Program-made: the position numbers and the translations under genes
NCBI GenBank assembly: GCA_038087875.1
Contig: CM075991.1
Coordinates: forward strand, 11,534,001-11,598,000
Length of the DNA: 64,000 nucleotides
Origin: Malacoraja senta
Lineage: Eukaryota
Reading direction: 5' to 3'
Shown here: positions 1,938 through 63,022 of the stretch, one piece after another
How the letters are laid out: every line of letters starts with the position of its first letter
Numbering within the stretch: position 1 is the first letter of the stretch
Notes under the pieces: model-generated
What the model saw: only the letters and a program-made list of their open reading frames with translations
The model's database searches: none
Told to the model about the DNA's origin: nothing

Positions 1938-2345
1938 ATGGGTCTGAAGAAGGGTTTCGGCCCGAAACGTTGCCTATTTCCTCCAGTCTGAAGAAGGGTT
2001 TCGGCCCGAAACGTTACCTATTTCCTTCAGTCTGAAGAAGGGTTTCGGCCCAAAAACGTTGCCTATTTCCTTCAGTCTGAAGAAGGGTTTCGGCCCGAAA
2101 CGTTGCCTATTTCCTCCAGTCTGAAGAAGGGTTTCGGCCCGAAACGTTACCTATTTCCTTCAGTCTGAAGAAGGGTTCGGCCCAAAAACGTTGCCTATTT
2201 CCTTCAGTCTGAAGAAGGGTTTCGGCCTGAAACGTTGCCTATTTCCTTCAGTCTGAAGAAGGGTTTCGGCCTGAAACGTTGCCTATTTCCTTCGCTCCAT
2301 AGATGCTGCCGCACCCGCTGAGTTTCTCCAGCACTTTTGTCTACC
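1938..2345 (+). repeat. Tandem array of eight 44-bp hammerhead-core units plus the element tail
   Basis: CTGAAGA at 1944, 1988, 2032, 2077, 2121, 2165, 2209 and 2253. Unit is approximately CAGTCTGAAGAAGGGTTTCGGCCCGAAACGTTGCCTATTTCCTT. Confidence 0.9.
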
Positions 2346-4927
2346 TTTAAATGGGTCAGGACCCTTCTCCAGACTAATGCTGTCAGAGGGAGAAAGCTGG
2401 TTTCCTCCACAGCTGCTGCCTGAGTCCAAATACAGTATCACCACTGTATGCAGGATATAATACACAGTGGTCTGCTCCACTGTAATATCTCAAGGTATGT
2501 CTACTTTGAAGAAATTCTCCTCTTCTCTCCGACAAAAGTTCAGCACCATCCTCCCTGTCTTTGATTTGTCCTTTTACAAACCTTCCATTCATCCGCTTTT
2601 TGTACATTTTCATATCTCCTTACTTCCCTCTCCCCAGACTCTGGGTCAAGAAGGATCTCGACCCGAAAGGTCACCCATTCCTTCACTCCAGAGATGCCGC
2701 CTGTCCCGCTGAGTTACTCCAGCAATTTGTGTCTATCTGTGGCTGCAGTGAATGGCTGGACCACGGGCCTGGTGACTCACTTTGTTTTTTAAATGCGGAC
2801 ACATCAACCAATTTTTCTTTCTGATTGAGTAGAGGGGGCTAACGGTGGCCTGGAGAACGATCGAGCTCAAATCAAAGGCCCTTCAACAACCCTGTGAGAT
2901 CATTCCCTGTTTGCCTACTCTGGGTATTAGCAGTGTTTTGGGTTCTACAAACCAAGTGTTTAATTCCCCCTTCTGATTCAGCTACTGTCCTCTCAGAGTG
3001 CCCTGTGTATGAAGGAACTGCAGATGCTGGTTTAAACCGAAGATAGACACAAAAAGCTGTTCTTTGGTCTGTCCGAAACTTGCCGATATCCCAGCAGAGC
3101 GAGATGCCCGACGGGGGATTGTTGCCGACCGGCCCGCTCCAGACGGCAGGAGTACTTGCTGAGGGACGCACTGAAGCTCGGTGCAGCCAACGCCAAGGCT
3201 CTGTGGGGGAGGGCCACAGTCTAGGGACCTTTCGCTGCTGGACATGGGGGAGGGGCAAAGTCCCGGGGGGGGGGGCACCCCTCGAATAAGGGAAGGGACA
3301 TCACCCCAGGTGCATCGTTCACCGAGCTGTCTGAAGTTTCTGCACCACATTAAGGGTGGTGAATCTGTGGAATTCTTTGCCACAGTGGGCTGTGGAGGCC
3401 AGGTCAGTGGATATATTTAAGGCAGAGATAGATAGATTCTTGATTAGTACGGGTGTCAGGGGTTATGGGGAGAAGGCACGAGAATGGGGTTAGGAGAGAG
3501 AGATAGATCAGCCGCGATTGAATGGCAGAGTAGACTTGATGGGCTGAATGGAATAATTCTACTCCTGTCACTTGTGACCTTATGAAACCTCACACTGAGA
3601 GATAGATGTCCATGGCATGGGGCAGGTTAGCGGCTGTGATGAGACTGGGAAAGGGATGGTGGCTCCCTCTAGAATTGCCCATAAACGAGGGGGGGGGGGG
3701 GAGGGAGGGGGGGGGTTCAGACCTGGATTGAGAGGTGATTAAGCTCTGCCTGCCAGATTCAAGCAGGATTTGTGCCTCAAAGCCCCGGCTCAAATTAGCT
3801 GAAGCCAATCCTAAAAGTGGTGACTGAGGAGGGGAATACCGTGTCTTTCCAGCAGGGAATCTCGCTTTTGGAAAATGCACAGCCGTTCCTGCTAATTTTA
3901 ACCATTTGCCCAGAGATAAGAGCTCGCTTGGTGTTGGAGACTGAAACTATTTATATCAGGACTAAAATATGATTCCCATGATAAGTTGACCATGCGGGTT
4001 AGCACTGAGGTTAGGGGAGAAGGGAGGGGGGCGAGGGGGTGCAGTTCTCCAGAAACTGTTCAGAGACCAGGTTAACCCTTTGCACACAATCATAGAAAAT
4101 AGGTGCAGGAGTAGGCCATTCGGCCCTTCGAGCCATTCAATATGATCATGGCTGATCATCCAAAATCAGTACCCCGTTCCTGCTTTTCGCTCATATCCCT
4201 TGATTCCGTTCGGCCTAAGAGCTAATTCTAAACTCAATCAAAAGTCAACTCAGTCAAAATCATCTTAAGCTAACATTTTCCCCCAGGACTTTATTCCTGT
4301 GGAGCAAGTCACCCCAGCATTGAACCCATGAGAACATCCTCTCCAATCTACCCTCTTGCCTTTGCGAGTGCTTCCCTCCAGCACATAGAGCTGATTTTTT
4401 AATGAGAACACATCAAAACTCAGGGCACAGGCAAAGGCCATTCGTCCCATCAAATCCCTGCTTGTCAAAACAGGACAGATGCCGTTTACCGCCTCTTGGT
4501 CATTGGCCTTGATGGGTCAGTTCATCATCCGCGTACAGTCCAAATGTGACGTGTCGACCCGAAACGTCACCTATTCCTTCGCTCCATAGATGCTGCCTCA
4601 CCCGCTGAGTTTCTCCAGCATTTTTGTCTAACGTCCATACACCAAGGTGTCTTTATCGACTGCATTTCTCTATATTGCACCTACCCAATTTTAGTTTTAG
4701 TTTAAAGTCGTTCAAAATCATCCTGAAGGTTACCAAAAAAAGGACTTTTCACAACTTCAAGATATCAGAAAGACAATGGGTAACTCAGAACTTTATGGAA
4801 TTGTCAAGTGGGAAACACAACATCCACATTGTACACGGCAACGTCCGACAAATATTAGTGTTAGCAGTTGAGATAACGTTGGTGCAGGATGCTGTAGAGA
4901 CCTCCCCTGACTCTCCCCCTTCATAAC

Positions 4928-9510: not shown

Positions 9511-10289
9511 TAAAAGAATGGACAACAAATATGTAGCGTGAAGAGTGGAAAATAGAAGATAGACAGAAAGCTGGAGTAACTCAGCGGGACAGGCAGCATC
9601 TCTGGAGAGAAGGAATGGGTGACGTTTTGGGTCGAGACCCTTCTTCAGACGGCGCCTATTTCCTTCGCTGTCTGAAGAAGGGTTTCGGCCCGAAACGTTG
9701 CCTATTTCCTTCGCTCCATAGATGCTGCTGCACCTGCTGAGTTTCTCCAGCATTTTTGTCTACCTCCAGTTTTTGTTCATCTTTACAACTTCCCTCCTCA
9801 GCTGAAGTAGCTTCCCTAGTGATGTCTCTGACTAAACTAAAGGCCATTACTTTAAACCGTGAGTACCAGGAAAAAAACATTTATAATTCATTTTCATTTA
9901 TAATGTGCCTTTCGCAATCTTAAGCTGTCCCAGAATGGTTTACAAAGTCCATACCATTCTCAAAATGCAGCCAGTGTTCTAACAGAGAAAGAACGTGCCA
10001 GTCAATTTGCATAAGGCCAGATCCAACAAACATTTGTGTGATAATGATCAGTAATCTGCTCTCGTGATGTGGATTGGGGGATAAATATCGGCTTGGACAC
10101 TAGAGTATTCCCTACTCCTAGATTGGTTTAGTTTAGTTTCGAGATACAGATGTGTATGTGTTCGGAATGTGGGTGTGTCTGTGTCGACTTATCACTGATT
10201 AAAATTCAAAAAAATCTAAATACCTTGAATTTCAAACCGACCATCTTCAACTGATGACGTTGCAATGGATCGACTAGCAGGGGGAGGGC

Positions 10290-12643: not shown

Positions 12644-13738
12644 GAAGGTACACAAAAATGCTGGAGAAACTCAGCGGGTGCAGCAGCATCTATGGAGCGA
12701 AGGAAATAGGCAACGTTTCGGGCCGAATCCCTTCCGGGTTTCGGCCCGAAATGTTGCCTATTTCCTTCAGGGTTTCGGGCCGAAACGTTGCCTATTTCCT
12801 TTTTTTTTTTTTTTATTTTTTTTTTATTTTTTTTTTAATTTTTTTTTTTTATTTTATTTTTTAGAAGTACGGTAGATTACAGTAATGTACAACACGTATA
12901 TATTAATACATTTTTTGTACCGCTTCACTTTTTTAAACTTTAAGAAAGAAAAAGAAAGAAGTAAGAAAAGTGAAGAAAGTGCGCAAAGGTTGTGAAGTGC
13001 AAAAGAGTGTTGGGAAAAGAAAGCCCCTTAGAAAAGAGGTTAGAGAAGGAAGTAAAGTTAGAAAATAGACCCTAGAAAAAAAAAGAGAAAGAAAGAAGGA
13101 ACAATCGCTCTATTATAACTCTTATACCATACTTCATAGAGAAGGAACTACCAACCAAGTCTGTTTTTATTTTACCTCCCATTACCAGGTCCAGATACCT
13201 TTTATTTATTTATTTGTTTTTCTAAATTACTATTGCACCTCATGCTTGTAATAGGTCCAAAAACGTAGACCACGTCTTTTGAAATTGATCTACTTTGCCT
13301 ACTAGGAGGAATCTCATCTCTTCCAGATGTAATGTTTCCAACATATTTGATGTCCACATTTTTATTGTTGGTGTGGGCGCATTTTTCCAGAATTTAAGTA
13401 TAAGCTTTTTTCCCATTATTAGCCCATAATTGAGTAAATTCTTCTGATACACGTTTAATTCAGGAATACCTTCCGATATTCCAAAAATAATCCATTCTGG
13501 TTTTGGTACCAGTTTTATTTTGATTAATTTTGAAAAAATATCAAATATTTCAAACCAGAATTTTTGGATTTTTGTACAAAAAACAAAAGAATGTGCTATG
13601 GTAGCTTCTTGACATATACATTTATCACAGATAACGTTGCCTATTTCCTTCGCTCCATAGATGCTGCTGCACCCGCCGAGTTTCTCCAGCATTTTTGTGT
13701 ACCTTCGATTTTCCAGCATCTGCAGTTCCTTCTTTAAC
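12644..13738. mobile_element. Palindromic Penelope-derived element with 17-bp TSD, interrupted by an L1 insertion
   Basis: AACATGTAGCCTTGATA at 12627-12643 and 13739-13755 flanks the two arms. Confidence 0.8.
12802..13632 (-). mobile_element. 5'-truncated L1-clade LINE (ORF2 C-terminus, 3' UTR, poly-A)
   Basis: CDKC...H...C knuckle followed by KFWFEIF...LIMGKKLILKFWK...W. Poly-A appears as the T-run at 12802-12862. 18-bp TSD AACGTTGCCTATTTCCTT at 12784-12801 and 13633-13650. Confidence 0.85.
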
Positions 13739-19700: not shown

Positions 19701-20277
19701 TTATCACAACATTGACATTCATTAACAGTGGTGAGGAGATCGCCTTGGAGTGTGGCGTGCCTTTTCCTCAGTCGCCAGAGAGAGAGAGAGTGGGCTGTAA
19801 GATTCAAGAGAGTCTATTGTGGTGTGTCCCAGGTAGGACAATGACATTCTTGCTCTGCTTCAGCACAACAGAACATAGTAGGCATTGACTACACGAAGCG
19901 GTGGCAACGTTAGCTATAACCCCTCCATCTCAACAAAGCCACCTTGGTCAGTTCCACAAACACCTTTTGTCACTTGCCTTCTCCTTCCAACCTCCCGGTT
20001 GTGGCTTAACACCAAGTGGCTGCTTGAGAAAGCCTTGCGATTCTACAGCACTGTTGTGCCCAGAGGTGTCCACAACCAGTGTGGTCCTTTAGATACATGG
20101 TCACTGTGGTGGTACAAGTGCCCTAGGAAGGAACTGCAGATGCCAGTTTACACTGAAGGTAAGACACAACATGCTGGAGTAACTCAGCGGGACAGGCAGC
20201 ATCTCTGGAGAGAAGGAATGAATGGGTGACGTTTCGGGTCTTCTGAAGAAGGATCTCCCCTTCTCTCCAGAGATGCG

Positions 20278-20615
20278 GGTAGACAAAAATGCTGGAGAAA
20301 CTCAGCGGGTGCAGCAGCATCTATGGAGCGAAGGAAATAGGCAACGTTTCGGGCCGAAACCCGGAAGGGTTTCGGCCCGAAACGTTGCCTATTTCCTCCA
20401 GTCTGAAGAAGGGATTCGGCCCGAAACGTTGCCTATTTCCTCCAGTCTGAAGAAGGGTTTCGGCCCGAAACGTTGCCTATTTCCTCCAGTCTGAAGAAGG
20501 GTTTCGGCCCGAAACGTTGCCTATTTCCTTCGCTCCATAGATGCTGCTGCACCCGCTGAGTTTCTCCAGCATTTTTGTCTACCTTCGATTTTCCAGCATC
20601 TGCAGTTCCTTCTTA
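20278..20615. mobile_element. Palindromic Penelope-derived non-autonomous element with three tandem hammerhead-core units
   Basis: Inverted arms, central junction GAAACCCGGAAGGGTTTC, and CTGAAGA units at 20403, 20447 and 20491. Confidence 0.8.
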
Positions 20616-20880
20616 AACTCCAGAGATGCTGCCTGTCCCGCTGAGTTACTCCAGCTTTTTGTGTCTATCTTCGGTTTAAACCATCTTCGGAGCCCCCCCC
20701 CCCGACCACAGATGAACAACAGAGGAGGATGACTGAACTTTGGTGCCTTCCCTCACAGTGGGAAACTTTGATTCCGCTGTGTGGGGTTGTCTATGTTAAA
20801 GACTATCGTGTTCTGTGCTCTTATTTATTCGTATGGCTGTATGGTGACCACAAATTTCACTGTACTAATTGGTAGATGTG

Positions 20881-21165: not shown

Positions 21166-21400
21166 GTGACAATAGATGTCTCTTGTCTCTTGCATCTGCA
21201 GTTCCTTCCTACACAATTGTAATCCTGTAATGTCTTGCCACTTGTGTCTACCTCTGAGGAAAGTTCTCCCCGTTCTACATGCCTGGTATACAGGGGAACC
21301 TATCTGCACAGGAATGCTGAAGAGAGCTGTAACACCACTGTGTAGTTAGGAACTGCAGATTCTGGTTTAAACTGAAGATAGACTCACAAAGCTGGAGTAA

Positions 21401-21732
21401 TAGCCCTGTCCCACGGTACGAGTTCATTCCAAGAGCTCTCCCGAGTTTAAAAAAAATCAAACTCATGGTAAGCACGGAGAATGAACGTAGCGGGTACGTC
21501 GGAGCTCGGGGATGTCTCTTAGCGGCTCGTAACGCCAACGGCAGGTACTCGGGAAGACTCGCTAACGGCAGGTAAGCACGGGAAGACTCGTGAAGATTTT
21601 TCAACATGATGAAAAATGTCCACGAGAGCCCCGAGTACCGACGAGCGGCCATTACTCCGTAAATCTCCGAGTTCGAAACAGGGCAAACTCGGGAGAGCTC
21701 TTGGAATGAACTCGTACCGTGGGACAGGGCTT
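21401..21732. mobile_element. MITE, PIF/Harbinger-like, inserted in a hammerhead element
   Basis: ~46-bp TIR GCCCTGTCCCACGGTACGAGTTCATTCCAAGAGCTCTCCCGAGTTT. The host motif GAGTAACTCAG is split with TAA duplicated (21398-21400, 21733-21735). Confidence 0.85.
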
Positions 21733-22545
21733 TAACTCAGCAGGACAGGCAGCATCTCTGGAGAAAAGGAATAGGTGCCGTTTCGGGTCGAGACCCTTTC
21801 TTCAGACGAGCACCACTGCCTCTCTCTATTCCTCTCTAAGTTGCCCATGCTGTGTGAGTGGGACTTTAACTAAATATTGTAAATAGTTGTGTTAATTCTA
21901 GTTTCCAAGGGCAGGAGGATTTTCTAAACGGAGGACACGGATCGAAGACAAAAACCTGAAGAAGCAGAGAAAAGCTAGGATTTTCTTTTTGTAGTAATCG
22001 GGAATGTGGAAATAGATTTTACATTGGAGAGGTGTTGACAAGAAGTTTGGAGTCCTCTGGCAGAGAGAGAGGATAGGATTCAGTAGAAACTATTTCAAGA
22101 AGGATCAGTCTGAAGAAGGGGTTCGGCCCGAAACGTTGCCTATTTCCTTCGCTCCATAAATGCTGCCTCACCCGCTGAGTTTCTCCAGCACTTTTGTCCA
22201 CCTTCGATTTTCCAGCATCTGCAGTTCCTTCTTAAACACATTGTTCAAGACATGGTTGGCTGAAACCTCCGCCTTGCATTCTATGAATGACCGCGATCAC
22301 TACAGAGAAGGCATGGAATCAACCACCCATGTGATTTGACTTTCCTGCAACTGAGCAGTGGTGTGTGTTGAATGTCACCCGAACTACTATCTGCCTCTCT
22401 GGTGAAAACGCACACACCTCCAGATTCAGGGACAGTTTCTTCCCAGCTGTTATCAGGCAACGGAATCATCCTACCACATCCAGAGAGCAGTGCTGAACTA
22501 CTATCTACCGCATTGGTGACCCTCGGACTATCCTTGATTGGACTT

Positions 22546-27857: not shown

Positions 27858-27994
27858 AGACCCTTCTTCCTATGGACTAGTGGAAGGAGGCTGAATATGG
27901 ACTAGAGTGCGGCCCAAAGAGAATGTCTCCTCATTGTATGTTCAATATTATTCTTTTCCCACTCAATTTAAGACTGATCTGTGCTTGTGTTTAT

Positions 27995-28455
27995 GAAGGA
28001 ACTGCAGATGCTGGAAAATCGAAGGTAGACAAAAAGTGCTGGAGAAACTCAGCGGGTGCAGCAGCATCTATGGAGCGAAGGAAATAGGCAACGTTTCGGG
28101 CAGAAACCCTTCTTCAGACTGAAGGAAATAGGCAACGTTTCGGCCCGAAACCCTTCTTCAGACTGGAGGAAATAGGCAACGTTTCGGGCCGAAACCCTTC
28201 TTCAGACTGAAGGAAATAGGCAACGTTTCGGCCCGAAACCCTTCTTCAGACTGGAGGAAATAGGCAACGTTTCGGCCCGAAACCCTTCTTCAGACTGAAG
28301 GAAATAGGCAACGTTTCGGGCCGAAACCCGGAAGGGTTTCGCCCCGAAACGTTGCCTATTTCCTTCGCTCCATAGATGCTGCTGCACCCTCTGAGTTTCT
28401 CCAGCACTTTTGTCTACCTGCGATTTTCCAGCATCTGCAGTTCCTTCTTAAACAC
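27995..28455. mobile_element. Palindromic Penelope-derived element with five minus-strand tandem hammerhead-core units
   Basis: Inverted arms AAGGAACTGCAGATGCTGGAAAATCG...CGATTTTCCAGCATCTGCAGTTCCTT, TCTTCAG repeated at 44-bp spacing from 28111, same central junction. Confidence 0.8.
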
Positions 28456-31895: not shown

Positions 31896-32451
31896 TGTGC
31901 CTGAGGTGCTGGCTGGGGTGGGGCGGATGCTGGGTGCCCGTGTACTGATCGCTGGTTGCAGGGGGAGGTCGGGGGGAGTAGGGGTGGGGGGGGAGCAGTT
32001 CTGACATACCCAGTAATACTCCCTGTAACGGTGAGTTTAAAGCTGGATATGGCAGCACGGTGTAGCCGGGATCATCAATCATCTCATCAAAGCCAGACAT
32101 GATAAAAGCAAAATATAACGGCTCCGAAAAATACTTCTGTAACTCGGCCTCGTATCTGCAGTGGGGAAATTGGGCTCATAAATCAAAGAGGCTTGTTGCA
32201 GTCAGTCCAAGTCTGGGAACGCCAGCCTTTGCTGTTACTCCTCAGAGCTCAGCCAGGTAATTTAGCAAATGCCAAATGAACAAATATCTTGTCTTTCCCC
32301 TGACTGTGAGAGTGGAAACAGAGAATGGTTCATTAAATGGACACACCTGTGATAATGCCAGGGTCTGTACAGGTGAAGGAAAAATGTTTCCGATCTTTCC
32401 TTCCCCTGCTTTGAGTAAATTTGTTCTGGTAACTAAACCATCCCCTGGTAA

Positions 32452-32872
32452 CAAAGGTCAGTGTGGGAATGGGAGGGGGAGTTAAAGTGTTTAGCAACCA
32501 GGAGATCACATGGGCTTAGGCAGACTGAGTGGAGGTGTTTGGCGAAACGATCTCCGAGCCTGTGCTCGGTCTCGCAGACGTACAGGTGTTCACACCTGGA
32601 ACAGTGGCTACAGTAACTGTGTTTGGAGGAGGTGCAAGTGAACCTCTGCCTCACCTAAAAGGACAGTCGGGGTCCTTGGACGGAGTCCAGGTGGGCGGTA
32701 AAGGTACAGGTGTTGCATCTCCTGCGGCTGCAGGGGAAGGTACCTGGGGAGGGGGTGGTTTGGGTGGGAAGGGACGAGTTGACCAGGGAGCGGTCTCAGC
32801 GGAAAGAGGAAAGGGGTTGGAGATGGGAAGATGTGGCTAGTGGTGGGATCCCGTTGGAGGTGGCGAAACTGC
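32452..32872 (-). mobile_element. Penelope-like retroelement fragment, GIY-YIG endonuclease domain (degenerate)
   Basis: ORF 32433-32654 reads FTCTSSKHSYCSHCSRCEHLYVCETEHRLGDRFAKHLHSV...VAKHFNSPSHSHTDL, matching the PLE pattern FTC..(IY)C..C..C..(YIG)ET.R....R..EH...HF. Confidence 0.85.
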
Positions 32873-33559
32873 CACTGGATCTGGGTCAGTTCCCCAACGC
32901 CACACTCCCATAGTGTCCTATCCTCCCAGCAACCCCCCTCCCTCCTCACAACCCCCCCCCCCCCCATACACCCACCACCCTCTCAGTTCCAGATTCCAAA
33001 CCCTCAGAATGAAAACAATCCCATAAGGTCATAAGCGAAAGGATCTGAATTAGGCCATTCGGCCCATCAAGTCTACTCCGCCATTCAACCATGACTGATC
33101 TATCTCTCCCTCTCAACCCCATTCTCCTGCCTTCTCCCCATAATCCCTGACACCCGTCCTAATCAACAATCTATCTATCTCGGCATTAAAAATAACTATT
33201 GACGGCCTCCACGGCCGTCTGTGGCAATGAATCCCACAGATTCACCACCCTGTACAATATCTTGCCCACCCTCCAGCTTTAGACGTCTCCAGGGTAGAGA
33301 AGGTTCTCACTGGACATACCATCACTCAGTAGACCTCCCTCAGGCTCCTCTATCTCCACTCCTGCTTGCACTCCAGACAATCCTGAATCATGTTGGAGAA
33401 AAAGAGGGATTCACTGAATCAGTTGGAGGAGTGGGGGGGATAGAGGGATCTTAGCATCAAACAGCAGACCAGAAAAGCCCCAGACCAAAAGCTGTGTAGA
33501 TGAACCGCAGATAGGCGAAACGATGGATAGAAAATGGTGCAGATAAACAGATAAGAATA

Positions 33560-35003: not shown

Positions 35004-36538
35004 AAACGGTGCGGGAAGGAACTGCAGATGCTGGTTTAAACCGAAGATGGACACAAATTGCTGGAGTAACTCAGCGGGACAGGCAGCATCTCTGGAGAGA
35101 AGGAATGGGCGACGTTTTTGGTCGAAGCTGAAGCATAAACCCCCCTCTTTCTTCACGGATGCCGCCTGCCCTGCTGGGTGTTTCTGGCATTTTCTCTCTT
35201 TATTCAAGTTTTCCAGCACCTGTAGAAGGGTCCCGACCCGAATTGTCACTCATCCATGTTGTCCAGAGGTGCTGCCTGACCCGCTGAGTTACTCCAGCAC
35301 TTTGTGTCTTTCTCTGTGTTCATGCAGCCCGGACTGAGAGCAGTTTCAGTTTCAGTTTCAGTTTTCGTTTATTATCGCATGTACCGAGCTACAGTGAAAA
35401 GCTTTTATTGCGTGCTATCCAGTCAGCAGAAAGACAGTACATCAGTTTGCATTCAGGCCGTCCACAGTGTACAGATACGTGATCAGGGAATGTGTTGGAA
35501 GGAACTGCAGATGCTGGTTTACACCAAAGATAGACACAAATGCTGGAGTAACTCAGCGGGACAGGTGATGTCACTGGATAGAAGGAATGGCTATTCCTTC
35601 TCTCCAGAGATGCTGCCTGTCCCGCTGAGTTACTCCAGCATTTCGTGTCCATATTCATGATAAGGGAATAACGTTTAGCGCAAGGTAAAGAGGACGAGGT
35701 GGGAACCATGTTCTGGAGCTCACTAGGCCGCAGTGACCTCTGTAACCCATGGCAACGGCCGGGGCCTACGGTTCAGGCTTGCCAGCCTCCTTCCTGCAGA
35801 GCCGGGCCTAGCCTGTCCCCTAGCCTGCCTTGTGTAATTTGACTAAAACTGAGGTTGAAGCCAGGCTGCATGACGCCACATATCAACATTTTATTGCCTG
35901 ACAGTTTACAGCGCAGTGAATTTGGCAAAGCTTGTAGGCAGCAAACCTTTGTTTCATTCCTCATTGAAGTGCGGGGCCTGTGACGGGTCTGGCCCTGCAG
36001 CAGCCTGAGATGTTATTAAGAAGTTGCAGGATATTGGTTAAGGCGACTGGGTCATCGATCTTGCTTTGATGTTAGCGAGGCAGCGAATATGAGGGGTTGT
36101 CAGAGGCGGGAGGGGAGGAGGCTGTGTGTGATGGTGGGGGGGGAGTAGAGGGCTGTGTGGGGGGGGGAGGGGAGGGGTGGGGGCTGTGTGTGGTGGTGGG
36201 GAGTAGTGGGGGCTGTGTGTGTGGTGTGGGCTGTGTGCGGGTTGGTGGGAGCGGTGGGGGCTGTGTGTGGTAGAGGAGAGGGAGGGGTGTGGTCCTTGTG
36301 GGGTGGGGAAAGGGGAGAGGTAAGGGCTGTGTTCAGGTGGGGGGGGGGGGATGTCGGGGAGGTTGTGGAGGGGAGGGGAGGAGAGTTATGGCAGTGCTGA
36401 CAGTGAGGTATTCCTTTAGTTTATTGTCAGCCCAGAGCTGGTGTCACAGACAGGCCTATAAATCACGGGCAACACAGCCCAAACACCTCCTTGGCTGACA
36501 GGCCTACATAATCAGTCTGTACTGCAGTCTGTAGGAAC

Positions 36539-37345
36539 CCTGCCTCTCCCCCTGCCCTCTCCCCCTGCCCTCTCCCCCTGCCCTCTCCTCAACCCTCTCC
36601 CCCTGCCCTCTCCTCATCTCCCCCTGCCCTCTCCCCCTGCCCTCTCCCCCTTCCCTCTCCTCATCCCTCTCCCCCTGCCCTCTCCCCCTTCCCTCTCCTC
36701 ATCCCTCTCCCCTGCCCTCTCCCCCTGCCCTCTCCTCATCCCTCTCCCCCTGACCTCTCCCCCTGCCCTCTCCCCTGCTCTCTCCCCCTGCCCTCTCCCC
36801 CTGCACTCTCCTCATCCCTCTCCCACTCTCCTCATCCCTCTCCCCCTGCCCTCTCCCCCTGCCCTCTCCCCCTGCCCTCTCCTCATCCCTCTCCCCCTGC
36901 CCTCTCCCCCTGCACTCTCCTCATCCCTCTCCCCCTGCCCTTTCCCCCTGCCCTCTCCTCATCCCTGTCCCCTTCCCTCTCCCCCTGCCCTCTCCTCATC
37001 CCTCTCCCCCTGCACTCTCCTCATCCCTCTCCCCCTGCACTCTCCCCTGCCCTCTCCCCCTGCCCTCTCCCCCTGCCCTCTCCTCATCCATTTCCCCCTG
37101 CACTCTCCTCATCCCTCTCCCCCTGCCCTTTCCCCCTGCCCTCTCCTCATCCCTGTCCCCTTCCCTCTCCCCCTGCCCTCTCCTCATCCCTCTCCCCCTG
37201 CACTCTCCTCATCCCTCTCCCCCTGCCCTCTCCCCCTGCCCTCTCCCCCGCCCTCTCCTCATCCATCTCCCCCTGCACTCTCCTCATCCCTCTCCCCCTG
37301 CCCTCTCCCCCTGCCCTCTCCTCATCCCTCTCCCCTTCCCCCCCC
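36539..37345. repeat. Pyrimidine-rich minisatellite (CCCTCTCCCCCTG / CCCTCTCCTCAT units)
   Basis: Seen directly. Confidence 0.95.
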
Positions 37346-39030: not shown

Positions 39031-39568
39031 CACGCATGGTGTAGTATCACTCAGCTATCACGCCTCATTCTGGCAGCTTTTATTGCAGCTGAAATAAATA
39101 GTGGCCAATTAAACTTTATAGCTGAGAGATGGGCACCAAATTTATCGCAGTGTCGCTCTAAGTGATTATATGTGGCAGTAATGGACTGGTTGGGGAGCAA
39201 TGATTCAACTGTGGATTTGTTTTGAGAGCTGAATTTTTTGTTTGAAATGATAATTTAAAGTGATGTTGTGCTGTGTGTGTGTGTGTGTGCGTGTCACAAA
39301 CGAGCCCGTCACAGAGAGTAGCGGCCTGCCTGCTTCCCAACTCTGCTAATTACTCAGCTTTCGTTTCAAGGCCTTGGATTTTACATAATCGCGGTTGTTA
39401 AAGCCTCACACAGGTCTCCGGGCGGACACCAAAAGCCGGAGTAACTCAGCTGGACCGGCAGCGTCTCTGGAGAGAAGGGATGGGCGACACTTGTTCAGAA
39501 CCGGAAAACGTCACCCATTCCTTCTCTCCAGAGATGCTGCCTGTCCCGCTCAGTTACTCCGACATCTT

Positions 39569-39820
39569 AGGTAGACAAAAGTGCTGGGGAAACTCAGCGG
39601 GTGCAGCAGCATCTATGGAGCGAAGGAAATAGGCAACGTTTCGGGCCGAAACCCTTCTTCAGACTGGAGGAAATAGGCAACGTTTCGGGTCGAAACCCGG
39701 AAGGGTTTCGGCCCGAAACGTTGCCTATTTCCTTCGCTCCATAGATGCTGCTGCACCCGCTGAGTTTCTCCAGCACTTTTGTCTACCTTCGATTTTCCAG
39801 CATCTGCAGTTCCTTCCCAC
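39569..39820. mobile_element. Palindromic Penelope-derived hammerhead element
   Basis: Inverted arms, one extra 44-bp unit, central GAAACCCGGAAGGGTTTC junction. Confidence 0.75.
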
Positions 39821-40295
39821 AACAAACCTTTGGCAATGCCCATGGGTCTCAGCCCAGGAAGTGCCTGTTAACCCTATAAGCATCAACTGTGTTGCAGGGA
39901 GATTTCTGATCATCTTCACCCTGGAATGGATTGGACCGGAATATTTTATTGTCACAGGTGACAAGGCACAGTGAAATTCTTAGCTTGCATGCCCGAGGTA
40001 TGCAAATAGCTGCTATGTAAAGGGCGCTGACAATGGTACAAAGTACTTCCTTTGTGCTTTCCCCCCCCGCCCCCCTTCACGGCGGTCCCCCCCACAACCG
40101 GGTCCTCCAATGTTCTTCCCCTCTTGCCCTCCTCACGGTGGTTCCCCCGCACCCTCATCGACCGCCGACCGCCAAAGACCCGCGAGGCTTCACCACCACA
40201 CCCTACCCCTGTGGGTGGAGTGCCTTGCAAGGCGTTGAGGCTGCAGTGTCCGTTTAACAGGGGGGTTGTGGAGTGGGGGAGATGGCGCAAATGCC

Positions 40296-41950: not shown

Positions 41951-42659
41951 TACATCATACACCCACTCTCCACACTCTGTGTATTGAAGCGACATTCTCA
42001 ATTAAAGTGCTTCAACGAGAGGCCGTGTTGTTAACAGATTAATTAACAAGCTCTTTGCTGGAGTACAACAACTCACTTGCTGTTGTGCTGACAAGAAGAA
42101 CAAAGCAGGGCTGATTATTACTTTAATTAAGTGCCCTGTCTCTCGAAATCCATGGAGCAATGCCCAGGGTGTTTCATCCACCGACTTGGCCGAGGAGGTT
42201 GCCTTGTGATTGATTCTCGCGATAGAAGGCCACGTGACAGGGCATTGTGTAAACGTCACCAGAAAGATTATATTTCACTAATATTGTGCCTTGTTGTCAC
42301 CTTCCCCTCAGCTAACAATGAATCATTCCACATTTTCCTTGCTCAACGTCCCCCTTGATCTGTCGTTTTCACACCTTACTCTTCCATATCTCTATGTCTA
42401 CCTCCCACCCCCCGGCTCTCAGTCTGAAGACTGGGTGACGTTTCGGGTCGAGACCCTTCTTCAGACCGTGTCTCAAGTCAAGTCAAGTCAAGTCTATTGC
42501 CAAATGAAAAGTGGCAATGTTCGCGGACTTTGTCCAAAAAACAAACAAACTACAAACAGAATGGAACAGAATCACATATTCTTTTACATATTACATATTG
42601 CGGGAGGAAGGAAAAAGGGGAAAAAAAAAAATCTCGTTAGACATGCCCTGTCCCACCCC

Positions 42660-51760: not shown

Positions 51761-52156
51761 GGCCTACACAGGCCTACACAGACCTATACAGGCATACACA
51801 GGCCTACACAGACCGACACAGGCCTACACAGACCGACACAGGCCTACACAGGCATACACAGGCCTATACAGACCGACACAGGCCTATACAGGCCTACACA
51901 GACCTATACAGGCATACACAGGCCTACACAGACCGACACAGGCCTACACAGACCGACACAGGCCTATACAGGCCTACACAGGCCTATTCAGGCCTACACA
52001 GGCCTACATAGGCTGACACCGGCCTATACAGGCCTACACAGGCTTACACAGGCCTATACAGGCCGACACAGGCCTACACAGGCTGACACAGGCCTACACA
52101 GGCCCATACAGGCCTACACAGGCCTACACAGACCTATACAGGCCTATACAGGCCTG
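51761..52156. repeat. 10-bp minisatellite GGCCTACACA with variants
   Basis: About 39 units in exact 10-bp register. Confidence 0.95.
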
Positions 52157-52991
52157 GCAGTCGCGGCAGGGGGGAGGCTGAAGGGGCTTTGGAGCCGGTC
52201 TGCATCTCCATGCCTGTGGCTTCCTCAACCGCCTGACTACTGTAGGCCCATAAGTAGTCAATGGGAATTAGAGGAACAAATATACCCGGAAATTGCAGAC
52301 AAATAGGGTTGTACCAGCAGGGGATTTTAACTTCACAATATAGACAGTGACGTATCAGTCTGAAGAAGGGTTTCGACCAGAAACATAACCTATCCATGTT
52401 CTTCAGAGATGCTGCCTAAGGTACTCCAGCATTTTATGTTACCTTTCAAATAGTCATGGATAGGGACAGGCTGGGCCAAAGGTTAAAGTCTTCAGGCAAA
52501 GGTCATTGAAAAGTGGCAGCGTGAGGTGTAGATGGAGTCAATGGAAGGGAGGTTGGTTTGTGTCATGGTCTGTGCTGCGTCCACAATTCTCTTCAAATCC
52601 TTGCGGTCTTGGATGGAGCTGTTCGCAAACCAATGCTTCTTGATAAAACGTTTAAAAAAAAATATATATTATTTTTTTAATTTAATTTTTTATTTTTATT
52701 TTATTAGAAGTAAGTACAATTGTATACAATCATATTTTCATAATACATTTTATGTACAGCTTCTTATTTTTTTATTATAGTAAAAAAGAAAAGAAAAAGA
52801 GATTAGATGATGAAGTATAGAAAAATGTGAGATATATAGTGTGTGGAGAAGGAAAATAGAGAGCTTTCTGCGGTGCATTTGTGGAAGTGGGTGAGACTTG
52901 TTGGGGACAAGCCAAACTTCCTAAGCCATCTGAGGAAGTAGAGGGCAGTTTTCAGACCCAGTGACCCAGAGGTCATAAGGCCATAAGTGAT

Positions 52992-53735
52992 AGAGTGGTG
53001 AATCTCTGGAACTCTCTGCCACAGAGGGTAGTTGAGGCCAGTTCATTGGCTATATTTAAGAGGGAGTTAGATGTGGCCCTTGTGGCTAAGGGGATCAGGG
53101 GGTATGGAGAGAAGGCAGGTACGGGATACTGAGTTGGATGATCAGCCATGATCATATTGAATGGCGGTGCAGGCTCGAAGGGCCGAATGGCCTACTCCTG
53201 CACCTATTTTCTATGTACCTATGTATCTATGATAGGAGCAAAATTAGACCATTCGGCCCATCAAGTCTACTCCACCACTCAATTGTGGCTGATCCATCTC
53301 TCCTAACCCCATTCTCCTGCCTTCTCCCCATAACCCCTGACACCCGTACTAATCAAGAATCTATCTATCTCTGCCTTAAAAATATCCACTGATTGACCTC
53401 CACAGCCTTCTGTGGCAAAGAATCCCACAGATTCACCACCCTCGGACTGAAGAAATTCCTCCTCATCGCCTTCCGAAAGGAACGTCCTTTAATTCTGAAG
53501 CTGTGACCTCTAGTCCTAGACTCTCCCACTAGTGAAAACATCCTCTCCGCATCCACTCCATCCAAGTCCGTCTCAATGAGGCTCCCCTCTCATCCTTCTA
53601 AACTCCAGCGAGTGCAGGCCCAGTGCCGTCAAACGCTCATCATATTCATTCCTGAGATCATTCTCGTAAACCACCTCTGGACCCTCTTCAGGGCCAGCAC
53701 ATCCTTCCTCAGATATGGGACCCAAAATGTTCTCA
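52992..53735. mobile_element. Two CR1 3' fragments tail to tail (+ 52992-53230; - 53231-53735)
   Basis: CR1 C-terminal peptides on both strands (ORFs 53365-53565 and 53573-53770). Confidence 0.85.
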
Positions 53736-54210
53736 CAATGCCGCTGGTACATCCGAGGGCTGGAAGCCACCGCCCAAACCCAGAGGCTCCTCTCTGCTGA
53801 ACCGACAACGATTAGCCAGTGATCAGCAGGAGAGTTTCTGTAGCATCTTTGGCTGCTTCGGCCCGAGAGGAATTTTGGACGCGTTCCAACGGCAGTGTTT
53901 TAATTCCTTGCCTGATTTTATCCAGCAGACGCATTAACGTGTTATCTGTGGCTTCTCGTTATCCGTGACGCGAGGATGGAGAGGCAAATTAGGGGGGCAG
54001 GAGGACGAGATCACATCTCAATATCCACAATATCACCGACAACAAGAAGCAATTTCATACTCGCTGAGTCTCAGCAGGTTGCCTTCACAGCACAGACACG
54101 GGCAGGCTGGTGTGTATCTTGCCGCAGGGCAGGCCGCTGCTAAATCCTGGCATTGCCCCCTCAGCTCAGACCCCCGCTCTCAACTCATCCCCCTTCCCCG
54201 ACACCAATTA

Positions 54211-54377
54211 AGGGCCTGTCCCACTTTCACGACCTAATTCACGACCTCTGCCGAGTTTGCCCTTGACTCATACTCGCAGCATGGTCGTCACGAGGTCGTA
54301 GGAGGTCGTAGCAGGCCGTGATGCTAGTCTTAGGTACTCGTGGTTATGAAAAGTGTTGTGTAAGTGGGACAGGCCCT
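54211..54377. mobile_element. MITE, PIF/Harbinger-like (internally deleted)
   Basis: TIR AGGGCCTGTCCCACTT, with TTA on both flanks. Confidence 0.8.
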
Positions 54378-54482
54378 TTACTACAAGGTGTAGGAAGGAA
54401 ATGCAGATGCTGGTTTAAGCCAAGGACAGACACAAAAAGCCCGAGTAACTCAGCGGGACAGGCAGCGTCTCTGGAGAGAAGG

Positions 54483-54697
54483 CACGGTGGCGCAGTGGTA
54501 GAGTTGCCACCTTTTTCTCCAAGATCTTTGGTTTCCTCCCACACTCCAAAAGATGTACAGGTGTAAGATGTATTGGCTTTTATAAAATGTTAAAAAATTG
54601 TGTGTGGGATAGTACTAGTGTGCGGGGATCGCTGGTCGACGCGGACTTGGTGGGCCGAAGGGCCTGTTTCCGCGCTGCATCTCTAAACTAAACTAAA
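54483..54697 (+). mobile_element. Internally deleted tRNA-derived SINE
   Basis: A box, part of the central domain, and tail with (CTAAA)n. Confidence 0.7.
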
Positions 54698-54861
54698 AGG
54701 AATGGGTGACGTTTCGGGTTGAGACGTCTGAAAAAGGTTCTCGACCCGAAACGCCCCCCGTTCCTCCTCTCCAGAGATGCTCCCTGAGTTAGTCCAGCTT
54801 TTTGTGTCTATCAAAGTCATTACAAGCCACCACCGTCTCTCTCCGCGGAACTTAAGTTCAG

Positions 54862-55441
54862 CGAGACCAACGATTGTTTCGCTGAACACCTCCGCTCAGT
54901 TCGCCTAGGCCGTCATGATCTCCTGGCTGCCAAAGACTTTAACTCCCCTCCCATTCCCACACTGACCTTTCTGTCCTGGGCCTCCTCCACTGTCAGAGTG
55001 AGGCCCAGCGCCAAATTGGAGGAACAGCACCTCATATGTCACTTGGGCAGCTTCCACCCCAGCGGTATGAACATTGACTTCTCTAACTTTAAGTAGCCCT
55101 TGCTTTCCCTCTCTCTCCATCCCTCTCCCATCCTAGTTCTCCGACCAGTCTGACTGTCCTGAATAAATTTATCGCGTTATGCCTCCTTGTCACCTTCCCG
55201 AGCTAACAATAATCTATTCTACATGTTCCTTAATCCTCATCCCCTTTGCTCTCTTATTTTCACACCTTACCCTTCCATATCTCTTGTTCCACTCTCCCCT
55301 GACGCTCAGTCTGAAGAAGGGTCTTGACCCGAAACGTCACCCATTCCTTGTCTCCTGAGATGCTGCCTGTCCCGCTGAGTTACTCCAGCATTTTGTGTCT
55401 ATCTTCGGTGTAAAGCAGCATCTGCAGTTCCTTCCTACACA
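54862..55441 (+). mobile_element. Penelope-like retroelement 3' end: degenerate GIY-YIG C-terminus, 3' UTR and terminal repeat with hammerhead core
   Basis: Translates with frameshifts to ...FAEHLRSVR...LSVLGLLHCQSEAQ...LEEQHLICHLGSFHPSGMNIDFSNFK*. This is followed by a pyrimidine-rich UTR, then CTGAAGAAGGGTCTTGACCCGAAACGTC at ~55311-55338, then the conserved tail ending TCTGCAGTTCCTTCCTACAC. Confidence 0.85.
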
Positions 55442-55570
55442 CTTAAGATCAAGTCAATTGGAACAAACCCACCTCGATCACTGACTTGTGTGGAAGATCT
55501 CTCTTACAGTATTCCCTCATCATGTATCTGTACACTGTGAATGGCTCGATTGTAATCGTGTATTGTCTTA

Positions 55571-55809
55571 AGAGCCTGTCCCCACTTTCACGACCTAATT
55601 CACGACCTCTGCCGAGTTTGCCCTTGACTCATACTCGCAGCATGGTCGTCACGAGGTCGTAGGAGGTCGTAGGTAGGTCGTAGCAGGCCGTGATGCTAGT
55701 CGTAGGTACTCGTGCATCAAGTAGGTCGGGGCGTTTTTTTCTAGCCTGATGAAAAATGTCCACGAGTAAAAAAGGTCGTGAATTAGGTCGTGAAAGTGGG
55801 ACAGGCCCT
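55571..55809. mobile_element. MITE, PIF/Harbinger-like (same subfamily as 54211-54377)
   Basis: TIR ..CCTGTCCCACTTTCACGACCTAATTCACGACC, inserted in a LINE 3' UTR. Confidence 0.8.
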
Positions 55810-55885
55810 TTGCCGCTGACTGGATAGCACGCAACAAAATCTTTTCACTGTACCTCGGTGCACGTGACAATAAGCTAAACTGAAA

Positions 55886-56082
55886 CCTTCGATGGTGGGG
55901 AGGTCAGTACTGTGATGGACCTTCGATGGTGGGGAGGTCTGTACTGTGATGGATCTTCGATGGTGGGGAGGTCAGTACTGTGATGGACCTTCGATGGTGG
56001 GGAGGTCAGTACTGTGATGGACCTTCGATGGTGGGGAGGTCAGTACTGTGATGGATCTTCGATGGTGGGGAGGGTCAGTACT
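55886..56082. repeat. 34-bp minisatellite, about 5.8 copies
   Basis: CCTTCGATGGTGGGGAGGTCAGTACTGTGATGGA starting at 55886, 55920, 55954, 55988, 56022 and 56056. Confidence 0.95.
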
Positions 56083-56751: not shown

Positions 56752-57130
56752 CAGGCTTGTATTCACTGGAATGTAGATGGATGAGATGGGATCTTATAGA
56801 AATGTATAAAATTCTTAAAGGATTGGACAGGCTAGATGCAGGAAAAATATTCCCCATGTTGGGGGAGTCCAGAACCAGGGGTCACACAGTTTAAGAATAA
56901 GGGGTCGGCCATTTAGGACTGAGATGAGGAAAAACTTTTTCACCCAGAGAGTTGTGAATCTGTGGAATTCTCTGCCACGGAAGGCAGTGGAGGCTGATTC
57001 ACTGGATGTTTTCAAGAAAAGAGTTAGATTTGAGCAGGAACGGGGGATGATCAGCCGTGATCATATTAAATGGCAGTGCTGGCTCGAACGGCCGAATGGC
57101 CTACTCCTGCACCTATTTTCTATGTTTCTT
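56752..57130 (+). mobile_element. CR1 LINE 3' fragment
   Basis: [18 protein letters not shown] and tail. Confidence 0.88.
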
Positions 57131-57579: not shown

Positions 57580-57952
57580 AAACTTACAAAATCTTAAGGG
57601 GTTGGACAGGCTAGATGCCAGGAAGATTGTTCCCGATGTTGGGAAGTCCAGAACAAAGGGTCATAGTTTAAGGATAAGGGGGAAGTCTTTTAGGACCGAG
57701 ATGAGAAAAACATTTTTCACACAGAGAGTGGTGAATCTGTGGAATTCTCTGCCACAGAAGGTAGTTGAGGCCAGTTCATTGGCTGTATTTAAGAGGGAGT
57801 TAGATGTGGCCCTTGTGGCTAAAGGGATCAGGGGGTATGGAGAGAAGGCAGGTACAGGATACTGAGATGGAAGATCAGCCATGATCATATTGAATGGCGG
57901 TGCAGGCTCGAAGGGCCGAATGGCCTACTCCTGCACCTATTTCCTATGTTCT
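57580..57952 (+). mobile_element. CR1 LINE 3' fragment
   Basis: [26 protein letters not shown]. Confidence 0.88.
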
Positions 57953-60571: not shown

Positions 60572-63022
60572 CTGTTGGACACTGTTGGACACTGTTGGAC
60601 ACTGTTGGACACTGTTGGACACTGTTGGACACTGTTGACACTGTTGTCACTGTTGGACACTGTTGCCTGTTGGACACTGTTGGACACTGTTGTCTGTTGG
60701 ACACTGTTGGACATGTTGTCACTGTTGGACACTGTTGGACGCTGTTTGGACACTGTTGACACTGTTGTCACTGTTGGACACTGTTGTCACTGTTGGACAC
60801 TGTTGTCACTGTTGACACTGTTGTCACTGTTGGACACTGTTGGACACTGTTGTCTGTTGGACACTGTTGTCACTGTTGTCACTGTTGGACACTGTTGGAC
60901 ACTGTTGGACACTGTTGTCACTGTTGGACACTGTTGACACTGTTGTCACTGTTGACACTGTTGTCACTGTTGGACACTGTTGGACACTGTTGTCACTGTT
61001 GGACACTGTTGTCACTGTTGTCACTGTTGGACACTGTTGGACACTGTTGTCTGTTGGACACTGTTGTCACTGTTGGACACTGTTGTCACTGTTGTCACTG
61101 TTGGACACTGTTGGACACTGTTGTCTGTTGGACACTGTTGTCACTGTTGGACACTGTTGTCACTGTTGTCACTGTTGTCTGTTGGACACTGTTGGACACT
61201 GTTGGACACTGTTGGACACTGTTGGACACTGTTGTCACTGTTGGACACTGTTGGACACTGTTGTCGCTGTTGGACACTGTTGTCACTGTTGGACACTGTT
61301 GTCACTGTTGGACACTGTTGTCACTGTTGTCACTGTTGGACACTGTTGGACACTGTTGTCACTGTTGGACACTGTTGGACACTGTTGTCTGTTGGACACT
61401 GTTGGACACTGTTGTCACTGTTGTCACTGTTGTCTGTTGGACACTGTTGGACACTGTTGTCACTGTTGGACACTGTTGGACACTGTTGTCACTGTTGGAC
61501 ACTGTTGGACACTGTTGTCTGTTGGACACTGTTGGACACTGTTGTCACTGTTGGACACTGTTGTCACTGTTGGACACTGTTGTCTGTTGGACACTGTTGG
61601 ACACTGTTGTCACTGTTGTCACTGTTGTCACTGTTGTCACTGTTGGACACTGTTGTCACTGTGTCACTGTTGTCTGTTGGACACTGTTGACACTGTTGTC
61701 ACTGTTGGGCACTGTTGGACACTGTTGGACACTGTTGTCACTGTTGTCACTGTTGTCACTGTTGGACACTGTTGTCACTGTTGTCACTGTTGTCTGTTGG
61801 ACACTGTTGGACACTGTTGTCACTGTTGGACACTGTTGGACACTGTTGTCACTGTTGTCACTGTTGTCACTGTTGGACACTGTTGTCACTGTTGGGCACT
61901 GTTGGACACTGTTGGACACTGTTGTCACTGTTGTCACTGTTGTCACTGTTGGACACTGTTGGACACTGTTGTCACTGTTGTCACTGTTGTCACTGTTGTC
62001 ACTGTTGGACACTGTTGGACACTGTTGTCACTGTTGGACACTGTTGGACACTGTTGGACACTGTTGTCACTGTTGGACACTGTTGGACACTGTTGGACAC
62101 TGTTGGACACTGTTGTCTGTTGGACACTGTTGGACACTGTTGTCACTGTTGGACACTGTTGGACACTGTTGGACACTGTTGGAACTGTTGTCACTGTTGG
62201 ACACTGTTGTCACTGTTGGACACTGTTGTCACTGTTGGACACTGTTGGACACTGTTGTCACTGTTGGACACTGTTGTCACTGTTGGACACTGTTGGACAC
62301 TGTTGGACACTGTTGTCTGTTGGACACTGTTGGACACTGTTGTCACTGTTGGACACTGTTGGACACTGTTGGACACTGTTGGAACCTGTTGTCACTGTTG
62401 GACACCGTTGTCACTGTTGGAAACTGTTGGACACTGTTGGACACTGTTGTCACTGTTGTCACTGTTGGACACTGTTGGACACTGTTGTCACTGTTGGACA
62501 CTGTTGGACACTGTTGGACACTGTTGTCTGTTGGATACTGTTGTCTGTTGGACACTGTTGTCACTGTTGGACACTGTTGGACACTGTTGTCACTGTTGGA
62601 CACTGTTGGACACTGCTGGACACTGTTGTCTGTTGGATACTGTTGTCTGTTGGACACTGTTGTCACTGTTGGACACTGTTGGACACTGTTGTCACTGTTG
62701 GACACTGTTGGACTGTTGTCTGTTGTCACTGTTGGACACTGTTGGACGCTGTTGGACACTGTTGGACACTGTTGGACACTGTTGTCTGTTGGACACTGTT
62801 GTCACTGTTGGACACTGTTGGACACTGTTGGACACTGTTGTCACTGTTGGACACTGTTGGACTGTTGTCTGTTGTCACTGTTGGACACTGTTGGACACTG
62901 TTGTCACTGTTGGACACTGTTGGACACTGTTGTTCATGGGCACTGTTGGACACTGTTGTCACTGTTGGACACTGTTGTCACTGTTGGACACTGTTGTCAC
63001 TATTGTCACTGTTGGACACTGT
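60572..63022. repeat. 2.45-kb satellite of interspersed CTGTTGGACA / CTGTTGTCA / CTGTTGACA / CTGTTGT units
   Basis: Seen directly. It explains the long stop-free ORFs. Confidence 0.97.

Follow-up and report, generated by a model that had tools for sequence, protein, structure and literature searches.

The dominant short repeat of the window (the whole 64,000-nucleotide stretch analyzed here) is, with a probability that we put at about 85%, the 3′ terminus of a Neptune-type Penelope-like element (PLE) of cartilaginous fish, comprising the pLTR plus an optional tail of ∼35 bp and carrying the known minimal type I hammerhead. A hammerhead in a PLE terminal repeat is a known and expected arrangement, published in 2014 (PMC4209133); what is unusual here is limited to its abundance and to the stacking of the motif in small tandems. 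The literature search for this PLE family in sharks or rays found no paper; subscription papers, Repbase/Dfam, and the supplements of PMC4209133 and of preprint 10.64898/2026.07.22.740005 lay outside its scope, and these supplements may list the family. The assignment annotates ∼13% of the window and carries a known PLE feature over to a dominant repeat of cartilaginous fish.

A preliminary description of the same DNA had proposed that the repeat is a PLE terminus bearing a hammerhead motif, and this proposal held far above chance. Its estimate of ∼40 copies was too low, as two natural seeds recovered 96 segments (56 of subfamily A and 40 of subfamily B) that cover 8,203 bp, or 12.8% of the window, and group into 52 clusters. 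With positions 55300–55445 as the query, the window yielded 92 blastn HSPs and 89 nhmmer hits. The repeat unit proper spans 55306–55441 instead of the 55240–55441 given earlier, with 55240–55305 belonging to the 3′ UTR. Inspection of 58 near-core windows showed that the two described subfamilies, with GUC and GUU cleavage triplets, are real; A and B are only ∼67% identical over aligned copies. We propose that most genomic copies of the repeat are neutral relics.

Features of the focal insertion and of related loci in the window (positions count from the first nucleotide of the window)
Feature	Positions	Strand	Basis or remark
Left copy of candidate 7-bp target-site duplication	54850..54856	+	same 7-mer at 55441–55447
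C-terminal half of Neptune-type GIY-YIG endonuclease, 5′-truncated and frameshifted, up to the stop codon	54857..55096	+	homology
Pyrimidine-rich 3′ UTR	55097..55305	+	81% match over 111 nt to 42284–42393; read and contig depth below that of flanking parts
5′ edge of solo unit (TCAGT, also a possible CAG splice acceptor)	55306..55310	+	loose ends at 55306/55308/55309
Minimal type I hammerhead: CUGAAGA core, extra A, stem II (55319–22/55327–30), GAAA, palindromic ACGU, predicted cut after C55338	55311..55338	+	features as in the available text of PMC4209133
Remaining pLTR, closing with the short 3′ end (55400–55406)	55339..55406	+	loose ends, segment ends; 55339–55340 form the 3′ strand of stem I
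Optional PLE tail of ∼35 bp, reaching the long 3′ end	55407..55440	+	among 96 segments, 32 have the short and 29 the long end
Right copy of candidate 7-bp target-site duplication	55441..55447	+	matches 54850–54856
Neighboring head-to-head pair of solo units	54388..54816	.	minus arm split by SINE-like insertion (∼54482–54670)
Second fragment of this family; linker zinc finger (CX4CxxC), GIY-YIG and CCHH motifs decayed	32436..32880	-	85% over 100 nt; profile match
Subfamily B array: 8 copies of the 44-bp hammerhead unit, the last continuing into the pLTR	1942..2352	+	array proper 1942–2293, 8.0 copies
Subfamily B palindromic insertion with 44-bp array	20246..20618	.	3.8 copies at 20364–20529
Subfamily B palindromic insertion, 44-bp array on the minus arm	27989..28453	.	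5.8 copies at 28077–28329
Subfamily B palindromic insertion with 2-unit arm	39551..39821	.	arm 39551–39698

The parent of the repeat is visible at the focal insertion, where, as observed earlier, a GIY-YIG C terminus and a 3′ UTR directly precede the repeat; both phmmer and a homologue profile confirmed the C terminus. The open frame (54788–55096) closes with a stop codon, and the focal copy is decayed, because the middle third of the endonuclease fragment is shifted in reading frame relative to its homologues. A Pfam search of this fragment alone returned no match. Phmmer gave 17 protein hits, 13 of which were aligned and two of which (the repetitive P0006 and P0013) were disregarded; the longer homologues exhibit the cysteine linker and the GIY-YIG signature (Pfam E 0.001–0.09, below the cut-off), and those of 800–1000 amino acids hold reverse transcriptase (RT) and endonuclease (EN) together. 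A profile built from 67 longer homologues, most with RT and some labeled GIY-YIG (three that were rechecked carry both), matches the focal copy (54869–55084) at positions 705–778 of 780 with E 1.6e-5 and the second fragment at positions 611–758 of 780 with E 2e-32. The window resembles cartilaginous-fish DNA in that the named relatives of the fragment belong to Leucoraja, Hypanus, Rhinoraja, and Rhincodon (five of the eight clusters examined have a name).

The extension of the repeat into a PLE reading frame stood by homology to distant proteins with an RT-EN frame and did not stand in the DNA of the family itself: no RT core of this family was detected in the window, also when using the 67-homologue profile. 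Word-index homologue searches found neither full-length relatives of the skate/ray endonuclease P0005 nor any homologue of the focal fragment, the ESM Atlas search for the endonuclease gave no usable match, no loci related to P0003 were found in metagenomes, and PDB searches returned nothing useful. Several annotated skate/ray proteins (P0003, P0005, P0007, and P0012, e.g. "mucin-2" or "neuromedin-U receptor 1") end in the endonuclease, either as an exonized element or as a gene-model error.

The endonuclease is of the C-terminal GIY-YIG type known from EN+ PLEs, and the second fragment as well as the homologues possess the linker zinc finger (CX2-5CxxC) and the CCHH motif of the Neptune clade. 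According to the available text of PMC8557442, linker finger and CCHH are common to Neptune, Nematis, and Naiad; Naiad is excluded because the endonuclease is C-terminal. A C-terminal EN with linker finger points to Neptune or Nematis. Besides this domain organization, the family shares with the Neptune clade as described by Craig et al. (2021, PMC8557442) the 5′ truncation, the inverted 5′ copies, and a tail of 30–40 bp. The assignment to Neptune follows endonuclease features and not an RT phylogeny, and Nematis stands as the alternative.

The 7-bp word that flanks EN, UTR, and terminus suggests that all three form one 584-bp insertion. This candidate target-site duplication is a single 7-mer at the focal copy, and the chance that random 17-mer zones share a 7-bp word is 0.5–1.1% (20,000 trials). 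Elsewhere, at 42284–42468, a copy of the 3′ UTR enters the motif and then turns into an inverted partial copy.

That the parent is a PLE, as claimed before, is supported not only by homology of the endonuclease C terminus but also by the two 3′ ends and the head-to-head inversions of the repeat. Segments end near model positions 92–112 in 32 cases out of 96 and at position 128 or beyond in 29, and loose ends at 55400–55406 and 55441 are seen in contigs of two other organisms and in one RNA run. These two 3′ ends, ∼35 nt apart, correspond to the optional 30–40-bp tail of PLEs; in a lizard PLE, RT starts at two internal sites marked by this tail (PMC11167929). Among the 52 clusters, 18 head-to-head inversions face 3 tail-to-tail inversions, and the 24 head-to-head pair rows compare with a random mean of 2.6 (maximum 8). 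The 18 head-to-head switches, together with head-to-tail joints, represent the direct and inverted partial pLTR copies of PLEs, for which inversions with palindromic junctions are described as typical (PMC3846280). At 9546–9782 and 1749–2352, the head-to-head neighbors stem from different subfamilies (A with B), reflecting either nested insertion or two templates. With Poseidon_Ac of Anolis (Frangieh et al. 2024, PMC11167929), the family has in common, as far as that account goes, the two 3′ ends that define the tail, the hammerhead in the pLTR, and the lack of RNA ends at the cut site. Poseidon_Ac, however, belongs to another clade without linker finger, and its activity has been demonstrated, whereas activity of our family is putative.

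The motif in the terminal repeat had been taken for a hammerhead, and indeed all core bases of the published minimal type I (C3–A9, G12–A15.1, U16.1, and H17) are present, as are the extra base after A9, the G10.1–C11.1 pair, and a palindromic stem III. The strict core pattern matches the window 30 times (two matches overlap), compared with a mean of 0.21 and a maximum of 2 in 100 shuffles. Every core base and both short stems are intact in 20 of the 58 near-core windows, including the focal copy. For stem II, the earlier parse GGGTC-TC-GACCC would need a 2-nt loop and had to be replaced by a workable 4-bp stem with a tetraloop, which reads GGGU-CUCG-ACCC in the GUC subfamily and GGGU-UUCG-GCCC in the GUU subfamily; the loop of the focal copy is CUUG (CpG decay). 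Stem I comprises 2 bp (55309–55310 with 55339–55340). At the gathering cut-off, the Rfam covariance models gave no hammerhead match, and at E ≤ 10 they gave seven weak unrelated ones, mostly the neighboring inverted pair taken for a microRNA hairpin. The motif had no match in viral contigs.

Minimal hammerheads were described in pLTRs of metazoan PLEs, including Xena, Poseidon, and Neptune of fish (Cervera and de la Pena 2014, PMC4209133). The available text of that study shares with our family the type I core, the extra base between 9 and 10.1, the G10.1–C11.1 pair, the palindromic 15.2–16.2 segment, the terminal-repeat position, and the predominance of solo copies. In contrast, stems I and II have 2 and 4 bp here, whereas they usually have 4–5 and 7–8 bp in Schistosoma mansoni, and a 2-bp stem I is given only for Drosophila virilis; cartilaginous fish are unnamed among the hosts in the same text (PMC4209133).

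A scan of metagenome contigs with a hammerhead pattern found at least 128 motifs in at least 122 loci. Among the matches listed, 30 outside loci match the EN domain, and in 26 of these the motif follows the EN C terminus on the same strand at a distance of 72–164 nt (215 nt at the focal copy). Positions 1–4 of stem I, which the scan pattern leaves free, form Watson-Crick pairs in 60, 61, 54, and 40 of the 68 listed non-redundant motifs, whereas shuffling gave means of 52, 31, 24, and 21; the pairs are of several types, and relatedness among the 68 motifs is uncontrolled. The EN geometry and the stem I pairing of the outside loci thus establish this class of motif as a genuine, structured hammerhead of PLEs. 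The outside loci have no further nucleotide similarity to the window. Six of them (L074, L032, L039, L085, L095, and L106) carry two inverted motif copies each, in L074 with an EN on each arm, which is the same PLE architecture in other animals.

Within the window, the notion of a structure conserved under sequence change failed as covariation. In 20 copies hand-picked from the 58 for an intact 5′ core, none of the six pairs shows a two-sided change, and shuffled copies score higher on average; in these pairs, A and B differ only by U-A to U-G changes at I.1 and II.4. Covariation in helices I and II was seen only in the distant outside motifs and not in this family. A contrast between core and non-core mutations (6/210 versus 63/399) was discarded, since the core itself had served to select the copies and subfamilies are mixed in the non-core set. 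In A and B alike, the four bases next to the cut site on its 3′ side have the sequence of the stem II 3′ strand (55319–55342 and all copies; both are changed from A to G in B). They can pair with the GGGU of stem II in an inactive hairpin, which is the predicted minimum fold and is kept in 91% of cells, equally well as the active fold; this choice of two partners for GGGU is possibly an off-state switch or chance. The predicted probability of stem II is 0.03–0.11 in short contexts of A and B and 0.71 in one intermediate copy, and the active dimer lies 18–21 kcal/mol above the predicted minimum versus a median of 11 for 78 outside motifs. The consensus fold of the tail hairpin has 13 pairs, none with a two-sided change, and whole-unit shuffle z-scores of −0.06 to −1.1 give no support for a selected fold. 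Hammerhead cleavage in this family is doubtful.

How far the motif is a hammerhead at all, and a working one, can be weighed on this basis. A chance resemblance, with a SINE or MITE beside an unrelated endonuclease fragment, would agree with the missing Rfam match and with the single EN-to-terminus junction in the window; it is highly improbable and largely refuted by the common motif-to-EN geometry at the 26 outside loci, which are otherwise dissimilar in nucleotide sequence, by the candidate target-site duplication around the focal insertion, and by the tail signature. We regard it as a real, if less favored, possibility that the hammerhead is vestigial in this lineage, its sequence being kept for protein binding or promoter function and never cleaving. 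The 2-bp stem I, the low stem II probability in the short contexts of A and B, the preserved alternative hairpin, and the loss of G12 through CpG decay in 5 of 21 A copies all fit this idea, as does the report that a lizard PLE inserted in vitro without needing cleavage. The same report describes cleavage of the lizard motif upon addition of protein (PMC11167929), however, and weak cleavage of dimers is described in PMC4209133; the review PMC6765202 cites Lunse et al. for dimer cleavage of PLE hammerheads. The core bases are, moreover, all identical in A and B despite the low overall identity, a point that is not significant alone.

The 5′ edge of the copies is sharp. Among 28 non-array copies, 22 have no more than 2–5 nt in common upstream of the core (C3). 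Of the 96 segments, 54 begin no later than model position 8, and loose ends at 55306, 55308, and 55309 head the lists in the runs. Starts close to the cut site (3 nt or less) number just two among the 96 and coincide with a SINE break in one case and an inversion in the other. As copies start 2–5 nt before the core and not at the cut site, cleavage does not define them. The copy ends rather indicate that the motif is copied uncleaved, sitting at the extreme 5′ edge of the template. The edge word, TCAGT or TCAGTCT, we take to be initiator-like. The terminus has ∼10 times the read depth of the EN, in RNA and contigs alike.

A copying route can be proposed that probably makes the copies strong-stop products ending at the transcript start. 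As known for PLEs, whose transcripts are described to begin in the upstream pLTR (PMC2377424), that pLTR would drive transcription of a partial-tandem locus. The RT-EN would then nick DNA and prime inside the RNA at two neighboring sites, as reported in vitro for the lizard PLE (PMC11167929), giving 3′ ends ∼35 nt apart. Priming in the downstream pLTR would lead to 5′-truncated copies such as 54857–55440, whereas with priming in the upstream pLTR the cDNA would reach ∼100 or ∼136 nt and run off the 5′ end of the transcript immediately ahead of the hammerhead core. Such a route would account for the sharp 5′ edge, the ∼10-fold excess of solo units, and the 2-bp stem I. Fold-back or template jumps at the palindromes of the motif might subsequently create the head-to-head pairs and, in subfamily B, a duplicated 44-bp unit, later expanded locally. 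The hammerhead would be copied uncleaved; any cutting would be slow, in a dimer formed via the ACGU palindrome, and probably protein-assisted. In one poly(A) RNA run, no place was found where many molecules begin, as at a transcription start, or where many begin or end, as in a cleavage pile-up; this test is weak, with 95% of reads continuing into unlike sequence.

Each 44-bp array unit of subfamily B contains the whole hammerhead motif, and tandem pairs with a complete type I motif in each unit, as in retrozymes, occur, for example, at 20447 and 20491 and at 1944 and 1988. The arrays show two linker variants and higher-order repeats and are possible natural cis dimers. The inversion junction is the same or nearly the same at five B loci (12735, 20363, 25756, 28329, and 39699), which points to a short palindromic master; the arm that carries the array differs from locus to locus. 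The junction consists of the stem II arms around a 4-nt spacer, and 34-bp duplications occur at 12730 and 25689.

Two other explanations of how the copies arise deserve comparison with the strong-stop route. The sharp 5′ edge may reflect a splice acceptor or an RT stall instead of a transcription start. A long pyrimidine tract and CAG (55307–55309) do precede the core, and the intron of D. virilis Penelope is described as ending at the 5′ end of the 2-bp helix I (PMC4209133). Yet the copies have no common upstream exon, 9 of 28 retain at least 5 upstream bases and thus extend beyond the AG, and PLEs usually retain introns (PMC4209133, PMC3846280, in their available parts), so that we consider this unlikely. 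Somewhat less unlikely, though still not favored, is that the solo units of ∼100 or 136 bp, especially the palindromic ones of B, share the PLE origin and are self-propagating non-autonomous elements or retrozyme-like repeats. They would then derive from short masters, perhaps through hammerhead-cut circles, and not be strong-stop products of full elements. This idea draws on the recurrent junction at five B loci, on the three loci with 44-bp arrays and the single 2-unit arm, on head-to-tail joints of 133–137 nt (10–52 contigs per joint row, two runs), on the fact that no B copy in the window joins an ORF, and on retrozymes derived from pLTRs in preprint 10.64898/2026.07.22.740005. With circles, however, the 5′ edge should not be fixed ahead of the cut site, as it is in 22 of 28 copies; RNA ends are absent from the cut site, the active cis dimer is 20 kcal/mol above the minimum, and 8 of 9 dimers tested in the preprint went without cleavage.

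Compared with non-LTR retrozymes (PMC7229834; preprint 10.64898/2026.07.22.740005), subfamily B likewise has tandem, pLTR-derived units with a type I hammerhead each. Its unit of 44 bp is shorter than the 51–972 bp of the preprint and the 150–450 bp given in 2020 (PMC7229834), and, unlike in the retrozymes described there, the motif is minimal and not canonical, the arrays lie inside pLTR insertions, and cleavage and circles are putative; monomers of 44 nt would be missing from a poly(A) library. The part of the preprint available to us places retrozymes in its one chondrichthyan and reports cleavage in 1 of 9 dimers. For such cleavage, the 44-bp arrays would be ready-made natural dimers.

In runs of two other organisms, 341,915 and 302,115 contig records match the stretch (37,228 and 41,224 only partly), which are not copy numbers, and eight organisms have >40% of the words of the stretch; the matches show a very abundant family shared between organisms. 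The very large genome-wide number of hammerheads envisaged in the preliminary description is plausible: if the window were typical, 20 intact motifs per 64 kb would correspond to several hundred thousand per gigabase-scale genome, far above the ∼4,000 of coelacanth and ∼9,000 of Xenopus given in PMC4209133. In one poly(A) RNA run, 20,217 of 7.3 million reads carry the element, on both strands, so that even weak cleavage could touch many host transcripts. A bolder combined reading is that skate/ray-like genomes hold 10^5–10^6 minimal hammerheads through mass strong-stop copying of the 5′ pLTR and that B is a palindromic non-autonomous element with active 44-nt cis dimers, the shortest retrozyme-like unit among those compared. 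As a whole this is unlikely, with about even odds for the density part alone and active cis-cleavage being the improbable part. For the role of PLE hammerheads, this family constitutes a large natural sample.

The window also holds other elements. Two copies of a short MITE-like element with terminal inverted repeats (54201–54380 and 55571–55810) lie near the focal insertion, and the SINE-like insertion that splits the minus-strand copy (54482–54670) appears to resemble the elasmobranch HE1 SINE. The segments 52985–53220, 56760–57130, and 57580–57950 are 3′ ends of a LINE that appears to resemble the CR1-type HER1. A sub-threshold RING match at 21278–21736 overlaps a copy of the repeat and was taken as spurious. 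The window contains 200 N and long minisatellites at 60572–63022, 36538–37335, 51761–52155, and 55885–56082, with units of 10, 13, 20, and 34 bp.
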